A stretch of DNA of 59,453 nucleotides, the filler included, from Diploschistes diacapsis (taxonomy: Eukaryota): NCBI GenBank assembly GCA_023645945.1. It is 4 parts of 4 records of this genome, joined end to end, with 100 filler letters (N's around TTAATTAATTAA, not from the genome) between each part and the next. Parts side by side here need not be neighbours in the genome. Positions count along the whole stretch, not along the records: positions 44,701 to 59,453 come from JALAIB010000587.1; 3 more parts are not named here. The stretch is one strand, 5' to 3'. The notes below the pieces were generated by a model. It searched no databases and was not told where the DNA came from. It saw only the letters and a list, made by a program, of their open reading frames with translations. Position 1 is the stretch's first letter. Every line of letters starts with the position of its first letter. Shown one piece after another: positions 2,486 through 59,453 of the stretch. The position numbers and the translations under genes are program-made.

Positions 2486-2929
2486 TGATAGCTCTCTGAC
2501 AACTGACTGATTAGAGTAATTTGTCAGTGCACGGAGACTGGCCCTTTTCGAATTTTGCACGCCGTTATCAGCAACACGGAGTATCAACTGTTAAAGAGAA
2601 CAAGTCCGAACTTGCATGAGCACGTTCACGGCGGCGGAATTCGTAGTTCAGGGGATATGACCCAAAACAATGTATGTCTCAAGGTAGAAAGGGTGTAGCA
2701 TGTCAAGTGCCAAGGATTAAAAATGTCAGGATCGGATACAAGGTTATTGTTTTTTCCGTACCGCTACAGCCTTGTGTATTGTACTTAAACCACCCATTAT
2801 GCCTGCAAATGACCCTTTTTTAAGTCGCTGTGTCAATATGTCATTTTGCCCTTGAAGCGATAGAATGAAAAGTGCCATAGAACTTCTTAACATAATAATT
2901 CTGCATAAACTTTGTAGCCATAGCAATCC

Positions 2930-3480
2930 TTAGTGTGGTTTTCTGTCTCGGATCCGCTGTTCTACATATCTTTATAATATAATATCAGTATCTGCCAAAC
3001 AATATCCACTTATTTTACAATCTTAAATTTATCAAAGCGCATAATTATTAAACCTATATAAGATATCCTTTTTAAAAAACAGCTCCAAAGAAGCAAAGCT
3101 GGAAAAGAGTATAGCAATCACAAAATCCGCGTTAACACGTTCTCTGTGCCAAGGGTATATTGTTAGAAGGATTGCTTTTTTTTATTCTCTCTTTTTAATA
3201 AATAAATAGGGGTTCTTTTGGCGGCGTTGTCATTTTTTCCCTTTCGGAAACATCTTCCGCGGCTTTGTACCTAATCTTATCTTAATTGAATCTACAGGAT
3301 AAGAAGGTAAATAAAAATAAGAAATATTTCTTATAAAATTCCTCCTCTTATGTTATTATAATACTTGGTTTATATTATACAATAATCTTCTTTTGCCTCT
3401 GATTTTCATGCTTACGCCAAGAACGTCGAGATAATTTTGTTAACTTTTGCGACGTTTGGCAATCCTTCCCGCCCCCTAGG
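2930..3480. repeat. AT-rich degenerate repeat remnant in the rac1/RhoGAP intergenic region
   Basis: Abrupt AT enrichment with no ORF; no TIR or TSD that I could confirm. Confidence 0.35.
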
Positions 3481-3617
3481 TTTAGGAAATAGTTGCTGGA
3501 TCCTACAAAAACTGCTTTCGAGGGCAGGTTAATTGACTCTCTTTACCTGTTCGGCATCGTTCCAGTCTCTTTTCCATCCTTGAAGCTCTTGTATATCTCC
3601 AGCAAGGGAATTTTCCC

Positions 3618-13393: not shown

Positions 13394-14443
13394 ACGTGTT
13401 TCACCACGAAACTAAACACACTAGGCTGGCCGTTTCGTGCCACGGTCACTGACACGGACACTACAACAAAAATTTTCAAAACACGGATACTGACACGGAC
13501 ACGACAACTAAAATTTTAAAACACGGATACTAACACGGACACTATATTACAGTAAAAGCACGAACACGGATATTATAATTAAAAAATTTAAAATATTAAT
13601 ATTAATACGGATATTATATTTCCGTAAATCTATCGAAATATTACGGTAAATCTATCGAAATACCGCAATAAAATTTTTTTAAAAAAATAAAAACGTGAAA
13701 AATAAACGTAATAATTCTAGAATTATTAAAATTAAAAAAATAATTTAAAATATTTTGATAAATACACGGACATGGACATCGTAATTAAAAATTTTTCGAT
13801 ATAAATATTAACACGAACATTATATTATAATAAAAACACGAACACGGATATTATAATTAAAAAATTTAAAATACTAATATTAATACGGACATTGCACTTC
13901 CGTGAATCTACGGAAACGGACACCGCAGCTAAAAAATCTAAAACACGGATATTAATACTGTTAGTATCCGTGTCACTGACACGGCCGTGTCAGTGTCAGT
14001 GATGGCCAGCCTAAAACACACCACCAAGCGGAACATTACATTATAATATAATTACGCTAGATCGAGCGCTTCCAAAATTTTAATTTAATTTTTAAATTTT
14101 AAGTGAGTTTTTGAGCTAAGCCTGATCCGTACGAAATCTTATAATTTATATATTAAATTATTTGTACGAAGACGACGATGGAGCGTTATTAAAAGAATTC
14201 CGTATCGTTTATTGACTTATCGTATGTTACAATCCGAGGTTCCTACCTCGTCACGTCCCAGCCATTCTTGTATATAATTCAATCATAATAATATTGATCA
14301 CGTGATTCGCTTATTACTTAAGCTCATCACGATAAACGACGAATAAAATTCATTACCTGCTCGATAATCGCGTTTATTTTTATAAACGACGAACTTTAAA
14401 GACACAGCTCGATGAATTTAAAATAAACAACGAACTATTCGAT
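13394..14443. mobile_element. Degenerate Tc1/mariner-like element end (TA|ACGTGTTTCAC...) interrupted by the hAT-like element
   Basis: TAACGTGTTTCAC at 13392 shares 13 nt with the TIR start at 14444. AT-rich, CpG-retaining interior. Confidence 0.45.
13422..14013. mobile_element. Non-autonomous hAT-type MITE, 592 bp, with 10-bp TIRs and 8-bp TSD
   Basis: TAGGCTGGCC (13422-13431) ... GGCCAGCCTA (14004-14013), flanked on both sides by AAACACAC (13414-13421 and 14014-14021). Many subterminal ACACGGA(C/T)A repeats. Confidence 0.88.
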
Positions 14444-14445
14444 TA

Positions 14446-14806
14446 ACGTGTTTCACGGGGATTCCGGCCACCTTAAATCACTACTGCCAACATTCTACGG
14501 TTTTTAGATATAACCTATTCGTTATAATCAGAATCTAATCGATCTAAATCGAATTTATCTTTTTTCTTTTTTATTCTTCTTGATTTTAAAAACGCGACGA
14601 CGTTTTTTACGCGTTATAAATCGTTTCGAAATTATCCGATTCGATTTAACCCGAACTATTATTTTAAAAACTTCGTTTATATAAAATATAAAACGATCTT
14701 TTAATTCAATTCGTTTATTTCATTTACGTTTCTTACGATTATTAAAAAAGGTTTTTTATTTTCGGTTTTCTTTATGAAACGTTATAAACTTAATATACGT
14801 TAACTC
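14446..14806. mobile_element. Left end of Tc1/mariner (pogo-like) element, truncated by contig end
   Basis: TA|ACGTGTTTCACGGGGATTCCGGCCACC, a 27-bp perfect match to the TIR at 127-153. AT-rich, CpG-retaining interior. Confidence 0.75.
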
Positions 14807-14906
14807 NNNNNNNNNNNNNNNNNNNNNNNNNNNNNNNNNNNNNNNNNNNNTTAATTAATTAANNNNNNNNNNNNNNNNNNNNNNNNNNNNNNNNNNNNNN
14901 NNNNNN
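14807..14906. other. Artificial contig linker (N44-TTAATTAATTAA-N44)
   Basis: Identical 100-nt construct occurs three times; the 12-mer has stops in all six frames. Confidence 0.99.
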
Positions 14907-29711: not shown

Positions 29712-29811
29712 NNNNNNNNNNNNNNNNNNNNNNNNNNNNNNNNNNNNNNNNNNNNTTAATTAATTAANNNNNNNNNNNNNNNNNNNNNNNNNNNNNNNNN
29801 NNNNNNNNNNN
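29712..29811. other. Artificial contig linker
   Basis: N44-TTAATTAATTAA-N44. Confidence 0.99.
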
Positions 29812-44600: not shown

Positions 44601-44700
44601 NNNNNNNNNNNNNNNNNNNNNNNNNNNNNNNNNNNNNNNNNNNNTTAATTAATTAANNNNNNNNNNNNNNNNNNNNNNNNNNNNNNNNNNNNNNNNNNNN
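44601..44700. other. Artificial contig linker
   Basis: N44-TTAATTAATTAA-N44. Confidence 0.99.
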
Positions 44701-49291: not shown

Positions 49292-50309
49292 ATGCAGCTT
49301 TTCAGAGTCCTTATTCTCCTTTTTGTCTTGTCTCCTGCCGTCTGGTCGCATCGAGTGCACCATCGCACCGTTTCTGTTCCGGTCGATATTCGCTACGAAG
49401 ATCTTTTACGGCTCCGCGGTGTCGCTCTTGATAGAAATTGCCGCAGCGACGATGCTGAAATGTGCCTGTCACGAAGGGCAGTATCAAGGCTGTTCCGGAG
49501 GGTGAAGTCTCTCCATGAGTGTAAAGATGATGAAGAAAAGGAAAAAGTTCGGTAAGTTCACGAGCGTTTTAGTCTACTTCCAGATTTTCTTTTTGGGTCG
49601 ACGCTGAAATAACCCCAGTGAGCAACGGCGGTGTGCTTGAAAGTACAGCTGCGTGTTATATGCGGCTGAAAAAGGTTAGGAAGTACCAGGCGGCCAGGCG
49701 GCTGTCGGAAGCTGACATAAATCATAGGAATGAAGTCGTTCGGTGAGTTTTTCACCAAACATACATCCGACATCAAGTAATCAGGCGGCTAAAAAGTATT
49801 CTAGGAATTGGCGAAAGGAGGCAAAAGAGAAAGATCCTGAAGGTTACTTGGCAAAGCAAAGGTAGGCTTAAGCATGGCGAGGCCTATCAATTTCTTCAGT
49901 AGCTGAAATCAATTCTAGAAAATATCACAGAAAATATGTGGACAAAAAGAAGCAGGAGGCGGCGGACGAGAAGGGAGGACAGGAAGCAGGCCCGAGAGTA
50001 AAGACGAGGAAGCATAGGGAGGGGAAGATGAAGAGGAAGATTCCAGAGGCAAAGATGAAGAACCCAGAGCAGGAGACCGAAAGCCTGGAGCGCGGGGGGA
50101 AGATCCCGAAACAGGGAATGGAGAGCCCGAAGCAGGCGTATAAAAGTCAGGAGCGCGGGGGGATAAGCGTGGGACAGGGAATGAGGAGCCCAAAGCAGGC
50201 GCATAAAAGCCAGGAGCGCGGGAGGATAAGCCCGGAACAATGCATGAAGAGCCCAGAGCCAAAGCGACCTCGAAAGCCCAACAACCCTCAAAGAGCGCCC
50301 TTTGGCTAG
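49292..50309 (+). CDS. Orphan secreted Arg/Lys-rich repeat protein B (at least 5 exons, about 244 aa)
   Basis: Exons 49292-49551, 49619-49630, 49728-49742, 49805-49861, 49919-50309; all introns GT-AG and phase 2, 735-nt open frame. Signal-like MQLFRVLILLFVLSPAVWS, dibasic LSRR/LFRR, then EEKEKVREQRRNEVVRNWRKEAKEKDPEGYLAKQRKYHRKYVDKKKQ and a repeat tail. Confidence 0.68.
50055..50260 (+). repeat. 63-bp coding tandem repeat x3.3 (21-aa unit M-x-(S/N)P-x-Q...ERG)
   Basis: MKNPEQETESLERGGKIPKQG / MESPKQAYKSQERGGISVGQG / MRSPKQAHKSQERGRISPEQC / MKSPEP. Confidence 0.9.
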
Positions 50310-51497
50310 CACTCGCCAACGGAAAATCGAGTCGTCCTGGATCAACACAAAACCTACACATTCCATTCCAGTCCCATACAATTCCATTTTCGATTCCTAT
50401 GGACTTTATTTTCTGGGAACACCTTGTTCTTGGTGTAATCCACTTAGCTTGGTCGCTCATGAGAATTGCAAAAAGAGGAGAAAACGGGTAAAGAGAACGC
50501 GACGCTGGGGCGCCGTAGTCCAAAACCAGCCTAAGTACTGGACGTACTACCTATGGGAAAGGGGAAGGGGATCATTTAAGACTGAATAATACATAGGTAT
50601 ATATCATAATGGCACGACCAGAATACAAGAGATGTTGCATTGAATCTGTGTGGATAGCATGTTAGCTGGGATGCTACCATTTTGGGCGAAAGTCTTCAGT
50701 GACCCTGTCTAACCTCTATATTTACTACAATGACCCTGTAAACCTCAAATATATTTCAACAAGCCCCCAAAAAATAATATGTTAGATCCAAGTATCCACG
50801 GGACCAACACTCCATGCGAGCCATGCTAGGCCCTTACGCGATTACTTTCAGACGGTTTTCTATCTGTATGTCACCTTGTTTCTTGTTTTTCTTTCTTGCT
50901 CGGTTTCGAGGGACGCTCGTCGGCGCATCATTGAGCTCGTCGGGGAGGAGCTGTAGGTTTGTAATGTCGGCCGGAGGCATGATGTCGGTGTAAAGTAGCG
51001 AGCAGACCGCACGCTGGCGGTGGGAGATCTTTGAGGCAGCGACGTAGTCCATAGTATATATTTCTCAAACAAATCTCACCTTTTCACGCCAAGCCCGCCA
51101 GAAATCCCTTTCTTTTATAGTATCCCGCGGCGTCGATATGCCTGTTCTGATCGTTATTTCTTTAGTGTAGACACGGGGTATCGATGAAGGGATTGTCTCC
51201 TAACAGAGAGAGTATTGAAGCACGAAATAAGAGTTGAATATGGAAATAGAACTTTCTAGGTGGAGAAATTATACTTGACAAGAATAATAAACAGATTGAC
51301 CTGGCTGGCGATTATGTAAAACGTAAACACTCAAGTAAGATTCTAGTGATAATGATGGAATTATCAGCTGAAGCTGAATTACTTTAGTGAAACTTCTATC
51401 TTCCAGTATTGCCATATAAGCCACATCTGATTATCTTCCCACATAAGTATTTATTTCCGCAAAGGTTGCTAAGCCTTGAATAAAGAAATTTTGGGGT

Positions 51498-51608
51498 TGG
51501 TGGCAGAAGTGGGAGTCGAACTCACGACCTTTGAAAAAGGTCCGCCAGCAATTTATTTATATTTATTTTTAAGTCGCTTGAATTTCTTCGAACATATAAT
51601 ATTTTGTC
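51498..51608 (-). tRNA. Degenerate type-II (Leu-like) tRNA pseudogene or tRNA-derived element with genome-encoded CCA
   Basis: Minus strand: long variable stem GACCTTT/AAAGGTC, T-arm GTGAG-TTCGACT-CCCAC, acceptor 3' side TTCTGCC-A-CCA. 5' end GACAAAA is consistent with G>A-mutated GGCAGAA. Possible anticodon stem AGCGA/TTGCT with an AT-rich insert. D-arm not recognisable. Confidence 0.55.
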
Positions 51609-52106
51609 AATATTTTATTCCCTACAGGGTCTTTAAGAGATATACGGAACGAATGATGGAAAGGGGAGGGAGGAATGCACATCAGTGAAAGGTTTCCAGC
51701 CTGCAGTTCATGATGCACGACAACAACGGTTCGGATGCTAATGGTGTGGTTTCAGCGCGCCGTGCATCTGTGGATTGCTGCTATTCCTTTCTATTCTATC
51801 TCTGTCCCAGCCTGGCTGCTGGTGCGCAATGCAAGGCGGAAGCACTTTTGTACAAACAACGCACCACTTTACTTCCCCCATCTTCTGCGCTAGCTACATG
51901 CAATCTACACCACCATTGCTCGCTTGTCAACTTTTCTCCCCCACGGGCTGCTGCACATTCCGCTACACATTTCCCCTTCCTCTCCCCCTCGAGCTAATCC
52001 CATCGCCGTCGTTGTCGCTATCGCCACGCCCAATGCTGCAGGTGCGCGCGCACTCTAGAGTCTTCATCTTCCCTTCACGACGCTGCGAGAGGGAGCAGAG
52101 CCGTCT

Positions 52107-54045
52107 TCAAGGCGTACACCGGCCCATGAATCTCGGGTAAAGACAGCACTCGCGCACCGTGAAGCGACCGCACATCCAGGCCAGGAAGCGCTCAAGGCCG
52201 AGGCCGTAGCCGCCGTGGGGAGAGGTACCGTATCTGTTGGTTGTTAATACAGTTTTTATGAGAGGAAGAGAGGTAGGCAAAGAAAAATGGAAGGAGAGAG
52301 GGAGGGCTGAATGGCTAGCTTTAGCATAGCCAGCCTGAGCAGTTGGACCTCGCTGTTATGAAAGCCAGCAGAAACCCAGCGAAATGGAAATGACCAACGG
52401 GAAAAAAGACTCACTTTCTCTGATCGGTATACCAGTAATATGGCCCCGCCTCAATGCCCTCCCTCTTGTACGCTTGCAACAGCTCCTCGTAATCGTCCAT
52501 CCTCATGCTCCCGCCCACGATCTCGCCCACGCCCGGCATCAGACAATCCACAGACTCCGTCACCCTCGGGTCAGCAGCGTCCTTCTTCATGTAGAACGCC
52601 TTGATTTCGACGGGAAAATGCGTGAGGAATATCGGTCGGTTGATCATGTCCGTCATCTTGCGCTCGGCAGCCTCCGCTATGTCGTCGCCGAATGCGTGCG
52701 GCTGGCCTTCTTCGTTTTTGATATCGTGCTCCACGAGCCAGTCGATGGCTTCCGAGTAGCGCATGCGTTTGAAGGGCCGCTCGGGGACGCGGAAGGAGGG
52801 GTTGAGGTCTGTGATCAGTTTGACCATGTGCGGGTCGGACATGGCGATGTCGATGACGCGGCACATGACGAGCTCGAGGTGGTCGAGGAGGTCCTCAAAG
52901 GTTATGAAGTCGAGTTCAGCTTCGATGTGTGTGTACTCTGACAGGTGGCGCCTGGTGAGCGATTTCTCGGCACGGAAGGAAGGGGCAACACAGAAGACGT
53001 TGCCGAGGGAGGGGAGGCAGGTTTCGAGGTAGAGCTGCGAGGATTGGGTGAGGTAGGCTTGCTGGCCGTAATAGTCGAAGGAAAACAGAGTTGCGCCGCC
53101 TTCGACCTGGGTCTGGACCATGGAAGGAGGCGTCACTTCGAGGCACGAGGGTTTGATTTCTTCGTAAGCTTTGCGAAAGGCGCGGAGGACAGCGGCACGG
53201 ACTTTGAGGACAGAGGAAGCGACTTCGCCGCGGATGACGAGATGGCGGTTGTCGAGCAGTATTTGTGGGCCTGCCTCTTTGGAGACACGGGTTGTAATAG
53301 CCTCTTTATCGCCGGCAGCTTTGCCGATAACTTGGAAATAGTCGGCGTGCAGTTCGCGGTCGTCAGGGGCGTGTTGTCCAGGCGGTACTTCCCACATCTC
53401 GCCGTATACTTCTAGCGAGGACCCTTGTGTCAAGGTCATTGCGTCGTATGTCTGAGTCAGTGGTCCCGTAAGCACGCATTGCAAGTAACCATAGCCGTCC
53501 TGTAGAGTGAGGAAGATGACATCTTTCTGTGGCCGTAGACGATGTACACGCCCTCTCACCCGCACCCGAGATCCGCGCATGTCTGGGTCCTCCGGACCTT
53601 CCTTGCCTTTTCTGAGCTTCACGCTCTTGGGATCTTTCTCGCCGAGAGTCATGGTCATGGCCCGGGGTAGGCTTGGGTCGAGCTCAATCTTCCTCTTCTG
53701 TGCCTCCTGCAACACGACCGCCCTGGCCTCGGCCTCTTGCTTTTCTCTCAGGGCGAGCTCCTTTTGCTTTGATTTCTTCTTCAAATGCTGTTCATAGAGA
53801 GTGTTGGCCTTCTTCATTCCTGATTTCGCCGGCGCTTTCCATTCTAAACGTGCTGCTGGGTCTCCATCTTCACTGACCGGGCCGGTTTCTGACTTGCGCG
53901 TGCGATACGAATGTCCCTCCGCCTGTGGTCGCGCGATAAAAGCGTGTAAGAGGGACCTATATGGCTTTTCTTGCGTTCCGTCAGCTGTTGCGTCGTCCTT
54001 GCCGACATCTTCATCGATGTATACCTCCTTTGCAGGAGCAGCCAT
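52107..54045 (-). CDS. DED81: Cytosolic asparaginyl-tRNA synthetase (2 exons; intron 52234-52414)
   Basis: [25 protein letters not shown] (OB fold), [77 protein letters not shown]. Confidence 0.97.
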
Positions 54046-54160
54046 TGTGCGTAGCCGAATGCTGAGTCGAGCCGTTTGGAAGGTCAAATGCAGAGACCAA
54101 AGCCGGAAGATGCTCAATATAGGTGCTGAGAATCATTGGAACATGAATATAGTGGATGAG

Positions 54161-54186
54161 TGAGTCATGCCAGACAGGTTGAGTCA
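54161..54186. promoter_or_regulatory. Two Gcn4/CPC-1 response elements (TGAGTCA) upstream of AsnRS
   Basis: TGAGTCA at 54161-54167 and 54180-54186. Confidence 0.65.
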
Positions 54187-54356
54187 ATAGGATTCTATTG
54201 TGTTTCGCATCAATGTTAAATGGTGGGGGATGTTCAGCCACCACCACTGTACAGCCACAGCCAAGCCACAGCACATAGACAAGCTTTGTAAGGCTGGAGC
54301 ACGTGATATGGCTGATGCTCGTCCAACCAACCGCTTTCTGATATCTGATATCGACA

Positions 54357-54417
54357 TTTCTTCTTCTTCTTCTTTTCTTCAGCCTCTTCCTCTTCCTCTT
54401 CTTCTTCAACCTCTTCA
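54357..54417. repeat. TTC/CTT-rich simple repeat
   Basis: (TTC)n/(TCTTCC)n pyrimidine tract. Confidence 0.8.
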
Positions 54418-55956
54418 AGGTTCCATTTGCCAGTGCAACCTTGATCTACCCTTGGAAGAAGATGAACACTGTTAGTACGCTTAGACTTGCACCTCGAAAG
54501 CATCCAATGCTAGCTGCATCTGCGTACCGAAGGCCTGTGTGCAGGGGCACTCCATGTCTCCAACGGGCTCCTTGTGTCTAAAGGCGTCTATGTATTTCAA
54601 GGCCTTTGTGTGCCTGAAGCCGCTGAAGCCTCTACCGCCGTGACGCCTTCGAAGTCGAACTGCCTTGCAGGAGCCTCGCCCTTGCACCGTCAATCCAGGA
54701 GGCGACACCCAGATGGCCTACGTCTCTGCTGCACACAGCACACAGCCCTGGATAGTACAAATGGTCGATATAAACATGAGTCTTTTCTGCGTGTGTTGCT
54801 GGCTATATTGCGATACTCTGACATAGCGGTAACCCTATTCAAGTTGACCGCATCTCCGTTGCGATTGTGATTTGCCCCTATTCCTGCTTCATCCTGCCGC
54901 CCCCTCCAAGATCACGTGCTAACGCCCTGGCTTGAAGTTGTTGAACATAAAAGTACCGTCATGGAAAATGTAGAAGCAAACATCTGATGGTAGATCTGTC
55001 TCTCTAGCAAGAGTGTTTTGCTCACTGTTGGGGACGAATATGTCGATACTTTGCAGTCACTCACAGTTACGGCCTCGCTTAGCTCCTAAGCTGTCCCTCT
55101 TACTCTGAACCCATCTTCCACTCTTTCATTCCATTAGCAAGCCGTTCTCAAGCTTGACCTCTTCCATTCATCTTGGCTTGCAGTCATACTACTACCTTGT
55201 CGTTCTGATACTCCTCATTCGCATCTCCTGGAAGGCGCTTGCATCCGTGATCGTCTCTCTTGGCTGCAACTCTATTCTTTCCCCGCTTACCAGACAAGCA
55301 AGATTACAAGCCCGAAAAGTGCTGGCCCTTCTCTCCATCTTCTAAGAACTTGATCAAGCAGGAACCATCCAAAAGACCTCGCTTGCAACCTGAGACTAAC
55401 CAGTCCTCTTCATTGACAAGTCACTCCTCGAGAAGTACCGAAATGTAAGTGACCGTGTTCCTCTTTGCTGCTCTTCTCACAGAGCAAACCAGTAAACAGT
55501 CTCAAATCAAGCCCATTTCCTTTCAACCCTACCTCAATAAATTAACGAGGTCCGGGATATCCGAGTCTAGAGTCACAGTCAGCTCTGTTGCTTGCATCGC
55601 GGATCAACACGGGTCGCTCTCCAGCATCACCAGGCTTAGAGGCAAGATCCTTCCTACCTGAACGTTGAAAGCGTCAGAGACAACCTTCTTTCCTACCTCA
55701 GCGTTGGAAGCGTCAGCCTTGTCCTCAACAGCAGACTCAGCAACCCTGTCGAGAGGTCTTTCACCTTTCTTCTCGCCTTGGACGCTTGTTCCAATCTCGG
55801 TCAAAGACTCATCTTTGAAAGCCTCCCAAAGCGCCAGAAGCCTTGGCCTCGGTTTTGTCTGTGGTGACAGTGTTCATCTTCGCCTATTTCTCGGACTTCG
55901 GTAGCCTTGGACCTCGATACGACCAGTCAGCAGGCTAAACATAGTTCCAGTTCAGT

Positions 55957-58038
55957 ATGTCTTCGCCTACCGGTTCCGAAAGCTCAGGGTCCGCTGGAGG
56001 AGTGCCACTCAATTCAATTGTCGCTCGGGAAAAAACCTCTACAAGCAAAGCCTCCACGGGCTCCAATCAATCTATTTCCGAAACCACTGCAGTTCGGAAG
56101 CAAAGCGGATCAAGTACCGACGGCTGGGAAGTTATCTCGCGAGGGCCGTGCAGCGGTTATCGTGACCAGCGCCAAGTCTTAGCCAGCTCTGGCGGCTCCT
56201 TTGAACATCACCACCCTGACAAAGGGCGCACCTCTCCTCTTGTTGACAAAGCGAACCTGCAAACAGCGAGCTCTTTCTCCACCGCATCCAAAACAGGAAC
56301 CAGGGCCACGTCTCTGTCCACAGAAACTCGAAACAGAGCCCTCTCCGCAGCTCAGTCGGATTCTTCCCTCCCTGGAGGTATTCATCCCCCTCCCTGCACC
56401 CCAGAGACCTACCACTACCAGGGGGAGGGTGAGGTACCAGATGCCGTGAGTTTTGCTCTCGACAATGTCAACGCCCAAGATGCACCAAGGGAAAACCTCA
56501 TGTCGCCTGATGCCTTCCGCAAGGCAGCGATGCTCCGTGCCGCAGTAGGTGCTATCGGTACAGAACTCAATAAAGACGGCCTTTCCGAGACAAAAGTTGA
56601 GGAAGTTGTCGGGCGAGCGTCTTTGAACTCTCCCGCAACCAGCGAGGAGGTTCTCCGCCAAAACGAGCCTACCATCGAACAGCCTATCCCTCATGTCCCC
56701 TCTCGGTTTTTCAGTTCGGAGGAGTGGCAGTCTCTGCATGCCAAATTCGAAAAGAGACAAAAGGATACTCTTGTAGACGGAGGTACAGAAGGAGCAGATA
56801 CTGGTGTATGCCATGGTGAGGAGTTCTATGAAGAGCCAGCAGGCTTAAAAGAACATGATGGTGAGGTCAAACATCCGCTACAGAAACTTCAATCTCGTAG
56901 CTCTTCGACAGAGGAGGAGAAGGACTTTGGGGTTGAACTCACCCGGGAAAAGAAGAGATCCTCGATATCGGAACCAGAGGGGGTTGCCGCAATATGGGGT
57001 GAGAGCAGTGTTGAGAGTGTAAAGTCACAGGGAAGCGGTTATGTCCCACGAAGCATGGTAGCTGGCACAGTTCTCCCAGAGAGGAAAACCGTAGACGCAG
57101 AACCTTTACGGGGCGAACACAGCAAGACATTCCACGCCGAACACGTATCGCACGCAAGTCGTTCCACGATGGACTCAATCGAGGCTTTGTCCTCAGGTGC
57201 CCCCGGCTTGGGCCATATCGGCGCTGACTACGAACCTCAACAAGATAATACTGCTGATCCAGAAGCCCGCTTGCTTTCAGGTGCCACACAAAAAACTTCC
57301 GTCCCACCCACTTCTCCATCCACCTCTTCTACCAGCGACTCTTCTCCATCCAAGGATTCTGACGGTGGTGTCCGACTTTCTCCATTTCGCCGCAAGGCTT
57401 CCACTACTTCTACTCTCGACACCTCTTCTTCAAAAGAGTCCGACGGCGGTGTCACCCTTCGACCGACCTCTCGGATCCACCTTGGTCACCACAAGCCCTC
57501 CACCCCCTCCTCCGAGCTTGCCGATAACTCGCCTTCGAAGGAATCTGACGGCGGTATCATCCTCCGTACAATTTCGCTGACCCATATGGAAGGCTCCAAG
57601 TCAACAATTGAGCCGGAATCAGCTTTGAAACTTACAGCCGCGAATTTACGGCGTCTCCCTGGTACTGCCCGACGTCCTGAGAGTGACTCTCTAGTGAGCA
57701 TTTCGTCCGGAAGGCCTGGGAAAGTCCGCAAGATGTCCACCGACCCGTTCGGCAATATTGGCGACTCCATCCTGACGCCGGAGAAGCTAGATGAAGAGAA
57801 GGGCAAGGGCAAAAGCGAGGCTACTGGTATGGACTTCGATACTGGCGCACATAAGGGCAAGGGCAAAAAGTCCACCACACCAGTCTTCAAGCTGCCAATG
57901 CGTCCGGCTGTCAGCGACGATACTACTGGAGGTCAGGGCTCAAGCAAGAACGCTCCAACCAGTTTCGCAGGAGAAAAGAAGGGTGAGGATGGGGGCAAAG
58001 AGGGATCGGTCACTGGGGGTGAAGCTCATTCCAAGTGA
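55957..58038 (+). CDS. Hypothetical Ser/Thr/Glu-rich, probably disordered protein (693 aa) with three SK(D/E)SDGG(V/I)xL repeats
   Basis: 2082-nt uninterrupted ORF with ATG start; no globular domain recognised. Confidence 0.75.
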   Translation: MSSPTGSESSGSAGGVPLNSIVAREKTSTSKASTGSNQSISETTAVRKQSGSSTDGWEVISRGPCSGYRDQRQVLASSGGSFEHHHPDKGRTSPLVDKANLQTASSFSTASKTGTRATSLSTETRNRALSAAQSDSSLPGGIHPPPCTPETYHYQGEGEVPDAVSFALDNVNAQDAPRENLMSPDAFRKAAMLRAAVGAIGTELNKDGLSETKVEEVVGRASLNSPATSEEVLRQNEPTIEQPIPHVPSRFFSSEEWQSLHAKFEKRQKDTLVDGGTEGADTGVCHGEEFYEEPAGLKEHDGEVKHPLQKLQSRSSSTEEEKDFGVELTREKKRSSISEPEGVAAIWGESSVESVKSQGSGYVPRSMVAGTVLPERKTVDAEPLRGEHSKTFHAEHVSHASRSTMDSIEALSSGAPGLGHIGADYEPQQDNTADPEARLLSGATQKTSVPPTSPSTSSTSDSSPSKDSDGGVRLSPFRRKASTTSTLDTSSSKESDGGVTLRPTSRIHLGHHKPSTPSSELADNSPSKESDGGIILRTISLTHMEGSKSTIEPESALKLTAANLRRLPGTARRPESDSLVSISSGRPGKVRKMSTDPFGNIGDSILTPEKLDEEKGKGKSEATGMDFDTGAHKGKGKKSTTPVFKLPMRPAVSDDTTGGQGSSKNAPTSFAGEKKGEDGGKEGSVTGGEAHSK

Positions 58039-58584
58039 AAGAGTAAGTGATTTGATCTGGTGTCTTTAAAACCCAGCTAACTAGCTGAACAGTACTTCAT
58101 GGATTTGTCTGTAGGGAGAACGGGGACTCGAGATGAGCGAGTAAGAAGAAACAAACGGCATGGATAATGGATTCCTTTGCTCTGTGCCCAACCTGCTGCT
58201 ATCTAGTAAGTAGTAGTTAGATAGGTACAAATCCATTATCTGGCCGCCAGAAGTATCGTGATAGCCATGGGTGATAGTAGCCACCATCACGTGACCTACA
58301 ATGGGGGATTCTAACATGGAGGTCTGCTACTCACTCGTAAATAGCTTTATTTCCCCACAAGTCTGCCCATGCAGATTTTTCTACTTACTCTAGATATCTA
58401 CTGACTTGAAGCTTGCAAAAAGCTCCGGAACCACCTGCTTGAGTGAGCTCTGCGCGTGTTAGCAAAGAAGGGGGAAGTAGGAAAGAAAACACAAAACGAC
58501 TGGGAGCTTGTGGTGACTCCAGCTAGATGTTTCCACAATGGAAATCAACCTACTGCCTGTTTATCAACAGCTTTATGTACAACG

Positions 58585-58602
58585 ACACACACACACACAC
58601 AC
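58585..58602. repeat. (AC)9 microsatellite
   Basis: ACACACACACACACACAC. Confidence 0.9.
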
Positions 58603-58989
58603 GCGCGATAACTTTGCAGAGCATGTAAACCATTCGAGAGAAACGGGGGCGTCCGGGCCCACACATCCCCCAACCCAGCATATGTCTCGTTCCAGCCAAA
58701 CGACATGGCCAACGACAGCCCCATCCTGGCTGAAAAGCAATTTCTCTCCTCCCCCGCTCTCCTCGAGTCGCGCATAACTCGGGCCGAGGCCCAGGAAGGC
58801 GAGGGCTTCCGTGCCATCTTTTTTTTTCCCCGTTCCCTTGTTTGGTTGGGGTAGATAGATACAGCGACAGCGTTTCGACGGAAAAACATCATAACTCTGC
58901 CTGCCTCCCGGCCCCACACGTTAGGGCTTGTCTTATTCTGCCTACTATAAAATTGTGTAATATATTTAGTGGCGCCCTAGTAATGCATT

Positions 58990-59453
58990 CTGCTTAGTTC
59001 GCTATGGCTCTATTAAATACTTAAATTTCTATATAATTTACGTATAAATGTATATCACTTATAAAAATACGTAGAACTATATAAAATTAAATATATAATA
59101 AATAAAATTTAATTATTATTATAATTATAAAAATTATATCGTAATAAAAAATAAATATTAAAATATTAAAAGATAATTAAAATACTTTAAAAATAATTTA
59201 AAAATATATTTTTAAATTTTTTATAATTTTTTTTATATCGTGTTTTTTTTTCGTTTATTATATTTTTTTACGAATCGCGATAATTATATTATAAATTACG
59301 CGGTCGCGCGTTATTATTTTTTTTATATCGATATTACGCGTAATAAATATCGTATCGCGATCGCCGGTTCGTTAATAACGATAACGATATTAAATAATAT
59401 TTTTAAACGTTCGATTAAACGTTGAAAAATGATTTACGTAAGATTACAACGCG
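58990..59453. repeat. Extremely AT-rich hypermutated (RIP-like) repeat at contig end
   Basis: Long stretches nearly devoid of G/C; surviving C and G are almost all in CpG. Confidence 0.8.

Follow-up and report, generated by a model that had tools for sequence, protein, structure and literature searches.

Why do nearly all the cytosines at one AT-rich end of a lichen fungus contig stand directly before a guanine? The question is raised by the last positions of a 59,453-nt stretch of Diploschistes diacapsis DNA (assembly GCA_023645945.1), hereafter the window, which was analysed at its full length. In the final 233 bp (59221–59453, GC 26.6%), 27 of 29 cytosines are followed by G, one by A, one by C and none by T, exactly the count of 27 CpG cytosines given by the sequence-only reading; 27 of the 33 guanines are preceded by C, three by T, two by G and one by A. 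This saturated core of an AT-rich block, which stops exactly at the end of contig 4, therefore holds 27 CpGs, 2 non-CpG cytosines and 6 non-CpG guanines. Its ratio of observed to expected CpG (O/E) is 6.57, and mononucleotide shuffling, repeated 20,000 times, never produced 27 CpGs (mean 4.1, maximum 11).

The window consists of four contigs of 14,806, 14,805, 14,789 and 14,753 bp, arranged by descending size and joined artificially by three identical linkers (N44-TTAATTAATTAA-N44) at 14807–14906, 29712–29811 and 44601–44700. The affected stretches at 13.5–14.8 kb and at 59 kb are therefore unlinked loci, and nothing on one contig is a genomic neighbour of anything on another. The genes of the window are fungal and include SRB8, MUS81, a copper P-type ATPase, PRCC, an asparaginyl-tRNA synthetase (AsnRS) and an O-methyltransferase. 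The AsnRS protein is recorded with a source contig of 14,753 bp, so the window stops where contig 4 does. The best named relatives of the AsnRS all belong to lichen-forming Lecanoromycetes, with Thelotrema lepadinum at 84% and Lambiella, Lignoscripta, Icmadophila and Xylographa next at 75–77%. Among public sequencing runs, sampled words of 50000–59453 were present at fractions of 0.96 (a lichen metagenome), 0.35 (a coded organism) and 0.23 (a rock metagenome). The same interval contains, in a GC-normal region at 50055–50259, a 63-nt tandem repeat of in-frame length (3.3 copies, 77% matches, no indels). AT-rich DNA occupies three of the eight contig ends (1–110, 14030–14806 and 59000–59453), and the genes that adjoin the AT-rich blocks are normal in composition.

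At the end of contig 4, a gradient away from normal DNA begins at about 58940 and leads into a near-pure A/T portion (59000–59220, GC ~5–10%) in which CpG is scarce, followed by the saturated core; across 59000–59453 there are 31 CpGs against 3.9 expected, a number again reached in 0 of 20,000 shuffles. The sequence-only reading had also assigned the bias to 14150–14806 and 13560–13900, and in both it is present, in weaker form. The first, which closes contig 1 and is an AT-rich block (GC 30%) that seems to have been mutated in part, has 49 CpGs against 14.6 expected, 49 of its 116 cytosines being in CpG (O/E 3.36); the second has 17 against 3.0, with 17 of 35 scored cytosines in CpG (O/E 5.55). 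Neither number was reached in 20,000 shuffles. The remainder of the window has a CpG O/E of 0.87, with ~20–22% of cytosines in CpG, compared with a share of 0.74 in 59000–59453 and up to 0.93 in its core. An AT-rich control without the pattern (2901–3500, GC ~30%) carries CpG at expectation (17 against 16.5; RIP composite index −0.17), so AT-richness by itself does not bring the bias with it here. At the start of contig 1, the AT-rich segment 1–110 holds five non-CpG cytosines, nine non-CpG guanines and two CpGs.

The CpGs of the two contig-end blocks lie in diverse contexts, with 39 distinct hexamers among the 49 CpGs of 14150–14806 and 22 among the 31 of 59000–59453, so that a single conserved motif does not explain them. 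The two blocks resemble neither each other nor the rest of the window. At least two sequences that are unrelated to each other, both with CpG in varied contexts, thus carry the pattern; confinement to a single CpG-rich ancestral element, which would have refuted the sequence-only reading, is not what is seen.

All cytosine contexts other than CpG are depleted. Dinucleotide densities per bp were compared with those of 56,982 bp of normal DNA from the same window. The two contig-end blocks (1,111 bp) retain CpA/TpG at 0.28, CpC/GpG at 0.23 and CpT/ApG at 0.34 times the normal density, with CpG at 1.38 times; when the AT-rich core of the transposon-like element described below is included (1,452 bp), the values are 0.29, 0.23, 0.29 and 1.28. 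In the blocks, then, the three CpH classes are removed to an equal degree and CpG is not removed. CpT/ApG is threefold depleted in the pooled blocks and ~20-fold in 59101–59400, where two sites are left in 300 bp. If the ancestral DNA of the blocks resembled the rest of the window, survival of non-CpG C and G relative to normal density would be 0.09 in 59221–59453, 0.13 in 59000–59453 and 0.40 in 14150–14806. The rate of change at CpG would be at most ~0.05 of the CpH rate if the ancestral CpG content did not exceed the 95th percentile of normal windows, and at most 0.05–0.27 of it in the two contig-end blocks if the ancestral content equalled the normal-window maximum. Hypermutation beginning with CpC was not detected in the window, where 0 of 581 windows of 300 bp had a CC/GG O/E below 0.5.

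When all C and G outside CpG in the normal DNA of the window are turned in silico into T and A, respectively, the product has 10.3 ± 3.5% GC and a TpA/ApT ratio of 0.97 ± 0.05, compared with 1.00–1.04 in the block, and 15 of the 16 dinucleotides of 59041–59453 agree with this model within ~2 s.d. The sole exception is GpC (z of 6–9). The saturated core also contains seven CGCG, a density of 30 per kb that is 11 times the 2.65 per kb of normal DNA, and over-represented short repeated words (for example ATCGCG, CGCGAT and TACGCG, two each). This segment requires a CpG-rich ancestor, since counts of at least 27 CpGs occur in only 2.1% of normal windows of 233 bp; this, the CGCG excess and the GpC misfit weigh against the conversion reading.

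The depletion is asymmetric between strands. Outside CpG, 14200–14806 contains 68 C and 27 G (binomial p = 3e-5), and this surplus of C over G points to G>A changes as predominant on the plus strand; in 14100–14199 the bias is reversed, with 5 non-CpG C and 13 non-CpG G. RIP in Neurospora likewise acts tract by tract and on one strand. The usual basis for recognizing and defining RIP is a CpA>TpA signature, and neither part of that hallmark, a high TpA/ApT or a selective loss of CpA/TpG, is seen in the blocks: TpA/ApT lies at 0.95–1.06. The substrate index (CpA+TpG)/(ApC+GpT) is low, 0.18–0.54 against 1.23–1.29 in normal DNA, and the RIP composite index is 0.41–0.84, so that standard RIP indices would only half detect the pattern.

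The third region that shows the bias belongs to a 588-bp MITE-like element (13424–14011), bounded at both ends by inverted copies of TAGGCTGGCC, which thereby place TA on either side (13422–13423 and 14012–14013). Its interior contains 41-nt and 72-nt tandem subrepeats based on a CACGGA-type motif. In its AT-rich core (~13500–13900), CpG is retained mostly in CACGG/CACGA motifs, and 8 of the 18 scored CpGs fall in three related hexamers (CACGAA, CACGGA and TACGGA) of the subterminal repeats. The CpG excess there is thus partly a motif effect, and the hexamer repetition makes 13560–13900 weak as independent support. A second copy of the 19-nt end of the element lies at 174–192 on the minus strand, near the start of contig 1, and has CpA at two sites at which the first copy has CpG. 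Ten loci on metagenome contigs that match the 19-nt end are all high in GC and share no likeness beyond the 19-mer, and were set aside as chance bacterial matches.

The subrepeats of this element allow a comparison of aligned copies. In a gapless 129-nt pair, CpG sites were changed at 4 and conserved at 10 positions, compared with 14 and 8 for CpH sites (odds ratio 0.23, Fisher p = 0.086); 18 of the 21 differences are C/T or G/A and three are transversions. The overlapping 72-nt pair gives 4 changed and 4 conserved CpG sites against 6 and 4 CpH sites, with 10 of 16 differences C/T or G/A and six transversions, and a gapped alignment gives 5 and 12 against 15 and 11, with seven transversions. 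CpG therefore changed less often than CpH between copies, as the sequence-only reading had expected, but it is not untouchable. That reading had described C>T change as almost complete at CpA, CpT and CpC with CpG kept; the composition of the blocks and the fit of the conversion model are as such a change would give, whereas strong sparing is not seen in the subrepeats, in which 4 of 14 CpGs changed. The subrepeats are old and cannot tell when or in what manner they diverged. Moreover, once a CpG has been hit at one base by any process, its partner base becomes a CpH site.

Other traces of transposons lie close to the blocks. The segment 127–155 is an exact inverted match of 29 nt to 14444–14472, with AT-rich DNA beside both copies, which suggests that fragments of one transposon family lie at both ends of contig 1. 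Any wider relationship of the AT-rich start of this contig with the opposite end was rejected, as a transition-tolerant alignment scored 71, below the shuffled maximum of 79.5, and only the 29-mer stands. The start of contig 1 (1–192) is thus made up of the AT-rich 1–110, the 29-nt match and the element-end copy; it is assigned to the minus strand, the other features described here to neither. With the MITE-like element, its end copy and the 29-nt inverted repeat nearby, the blocks sit in transposon-derived surroundings. A search of 12 read-through frames (14010–14806 and 58900–59453) against Pfam at E ≤ 1 returned no families as coding remnants, and a 21-nt word of the saturated block, used to look for other copies, had 0 matches in genome contigs and 0 in viral contigs. 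The evidence amounts to 1.1–1.45 kb in total, located at the ends of short-read contigs.

From the composition of the contig-end blocks we infer both the direction of the changes, C to T, and their sequence context. On this evidence, the AT-rich contig ends were probably made by RIP-like, repeat-directed C-to-T hypermutation that acted at all CpH sites and to which CpG was nearly immune. They would be relics of repeated DNA, descended from GC-normal repeats and driven almost to saturation by a RIP-type process. Cytosine would have been deaminated on one strand at a time, about equally in CpA, CpT and CpC and almost never in CpG, leaving A/T and the original CpGs; a remainder of this kind would look like bisulfite-converted, CpG-methylated DNA. 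As the putative cause of the sparing we favour an intrinsic non-CG specificity of a DNMT-fold mutator, in a RID and/or DIM-2-type pathway. Next in order would come pre-existing symmetric CpG methylation that makes CpG refractory, and after it a putative CpG-specific repair of T:G mismatches. Protection by methylation would mean that the CpGs were symmetrically methylated at the time of attack, for example by a Dnmt5-type maintenance enzyme, and that unmethylated cytosine is the only substrate of the RIP deaminase; to this version we attach a low probability.

The proposed process shares much with the RIP of Neurospora crassa and other Pezizomycotina, which depends on RID and DIM-2/DIM-5. In both, gene-free AT-rich blocks have sharp borders beside normal genes, the composition is consistent with C:G>T:A change in strand-wise tracts, and the blocks, with transposon fragments beside them, interrupt assemblies made from short reads. 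The taxon fits as well, as RIP is reported for lichen-forming Lecanoromycetes in the available part of PMC12542154, which describes RIP-derived AT-rich regions of 10–20% GC together with RID and DIM-2 homologues, the latter for Cladonia rangiformis only. RIP-derived AT-rich regions are likewise described in the accessible portions of reports on Xanthoria (preprint 10.1101/2025.11.25.690456) and on the Teloschistales (PMC9907504). The word CpG is absent from the available parts of these three lichen texts (PMC12542154, 10.1101/2025.11.25.690456 and PMC9907504), and in openly available full-text literature we found neither a CpG-sparing RIP nor a mention of CpG with RIP in lichen fungi. Known RIP prefers CpA and also targets CpG; here, by contrast, CpA, CpT and CpC fall together, CpG shows no decrease and TpA/ApT is ~1.0. 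According to the part available of a 2025 survey of 1,239 fungal species, RIP-like defences share the CpA preference (PMC12543289), and in the ribosomal DNA of L. maculans the changes are mainly at CpA and CpG (PMC3105345).

Processes that act on CpG itself leave the opposite trace. Like the decay of 5-methylcytosine and the TpCpG hypermutation of Microbotryum and rusts, the process proposed here would concentrate C>T change in repeats; unlike it, those processes remove CpG (PMC2621366), which here alone survives. CpG is depleted in the repeats of Parastagonospora (PMC2621366), and the CpG depletion that marks methylated-CpG decay, or a CpG-targeted hypermutation of Aspergillus or basidiomycete type, is absent from the blocks, in which CpG stands at 1.28–1.38 times its normal density. 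A nearer parallel may be the Dim2 mutator of Zymoseptoria tritici, which, in the available part of its description, promotes C>T change at CpA while methylated CG shows no high mutation rate (PMC8016269). CG escapes in both cases, here as judged by composition, but the activity described in that part for Z. tritici is CpA-specific, mitotic and shown by experiment (PMC8016269), whereas here all CpH sites are affected and the pattern is read from composition; the exclusive use of CpA is not seen in the blocks. Neurospora DIM-2 is said, in the portion available of PMC13297926, to methylate mainly non-CG sites.

For a quantitative comparison we used, with our own arithmetic, the 79 rows of the OcculterCut dinucleotide table (Table S3; PMC4943192 supplement 2, sheet 3). 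The largest share of cytosines in CpG in any AT-rich region of that table is ~0.33, in a row labelled Macrophomina phaseolina, compared with 0.74–0.93 here, and CpT is never depleted more than about twofold. The AT-rich regions of Cladonia macilenta and C. metacorallifera, whose dinucleotides sum to ~18% GC in agreement with Table 2 of that paper, resemble the present blocks in class and as very AT-rich regions of RIP type. In both Cladonia rows, CpG is 12–17-fold lower in AT-rich regions (0.0039 and 0.0029 against 0.0491), CpA is 13-fold lower and CpT is unchanged (0.066–0.071 against 0.067), so that CpG and CpT are treated in the opposite way in this window (PMC4943192). Several species labels in sheets 2 and 3 of the supplement conflict with the AT-rich GC contents given in that supplement: the values of the Caloplaca row add up to ~28% GC against 14.9% listed, a row labelled Grosmannia fits the Caloplaca values, and one Zymoseptoria tritici row is a near duplicate of Neurospora crassa (PMC4943192). 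We therefore rely only on the statement about all rows, which needs no labels, and on the Cladonia rows.

Could the blocks have arisen instead by ordinary CpA-preferring RIP over very many sexual cycles, until all contexts were exhausted, with CpG the slowest, so that the difference is one of degree? In Neurospora the context that RIP least prefers is CpC, not CpG, whereas CC/GG is nearly gone here, and where mutation is only partial, CpA, CpT and CpC have been lost in equal measure (to 0.23–0.34 times normal), both of which argue against it. The most mutated 300-bp windows do speak for it, as CpA/TpG is their most depleted class, with one site left in 59101–59400 and five in 14501–14800 compared with 2–16 for CpT/ApG. 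So do the low substrate index and the report of CpA-preferring RIP in other lichen fungi and as a kingdom-wide rule, as given in the available part of PMC12543289. In the OcculterCut table, however, a CpT depletion beyond about twofold is absent from all 79 rows, and TpA/ApT is 1.2–2.0 for CpA-driven RIP, compared with the values near 1.0 in the blocks (PMC4943192). Taking these points together, we regard prolonged ordinary RIP as unlikely.

A similarly small probability falls to the idea that no hypermutation took place and that the blocks are natively AT-rich non-coding DNA, such as MITE interiors, spacers or satellite-like sequence, with CpG motifs kept for other reasons, for example as protein-binding sites. 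The concentration of MITE-core CpGs in three hexamers, the over-representation of CGCG and of short words in 59221–59453 and the lack of a GC-normal homologue of the contig-end blocks in the window self-comparison and in Pfam would all be expected of such DNA. Against it, the rule that only CpG is left is common to two unrelated blocks and the MITE core, the CpG contexts in both contig-end blocks are diverse, non-CpG C and G are depleted asymmetrically between strands and in tracts, the differences between MITE half-units are mostly transitions (18 of 21 in the 129-nt pair), and CpG is at its normal level in ordinary AT-rich DNA from elsewhere in the window. Assembly error or DNA damage near the termini of short metagenomic contigs is a highly improbable source of the pattern, even though every affected block touches a contig end or lies within 1.4 kb of one. 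The best public run covers 0.96 of the sampled words of 50000–59453, and since the 4% not covered roughly equals the block in length, the presence of the block itself in that run cannot be asserted. Blocks derived by RIP are, however, expected at contig ends because assemblers break at repeats (PMC12542154, in the part available). No known error or damage process strips all cytosines except those before G, on both strands and over hundreds of bases, and the MITE core lies inside a contig with normal DNA on both sides.

The reading of the blocks as products of a CpG-sparing, CpH-wide hypermutation in a Lecanoromycete, which as judged from the sequence is partly supported, would mark a departure from the known specificity of RIP. 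Genomes of this kind would be under-reported by the TpA/ApT product index, which is ~1.0 here, and such a lineage would also matter for the binning and annotation of lichen metagenomes, in which these AT-rich parts are often lost, as noted in the available part of PMC9907504. If, in addition, the CpGs were protected by methylation, the blocks would record an ancestral transposon methylome in fossil form, much as bisulfite treatment does but by a natural route, two interacting DNMT systems would determine the specificity of Lecanoromycete RIP, and the loss of CpG in Cladonia would be explained together with its retention in this lineage. The step that sets the context preference of RIP would become open to comparison with the CpG-losing Cladonia, through the repertoire of DNMTs and glycosylases and the methylome, and the context rule of the mutator would be able to evolve within a single fungal class.
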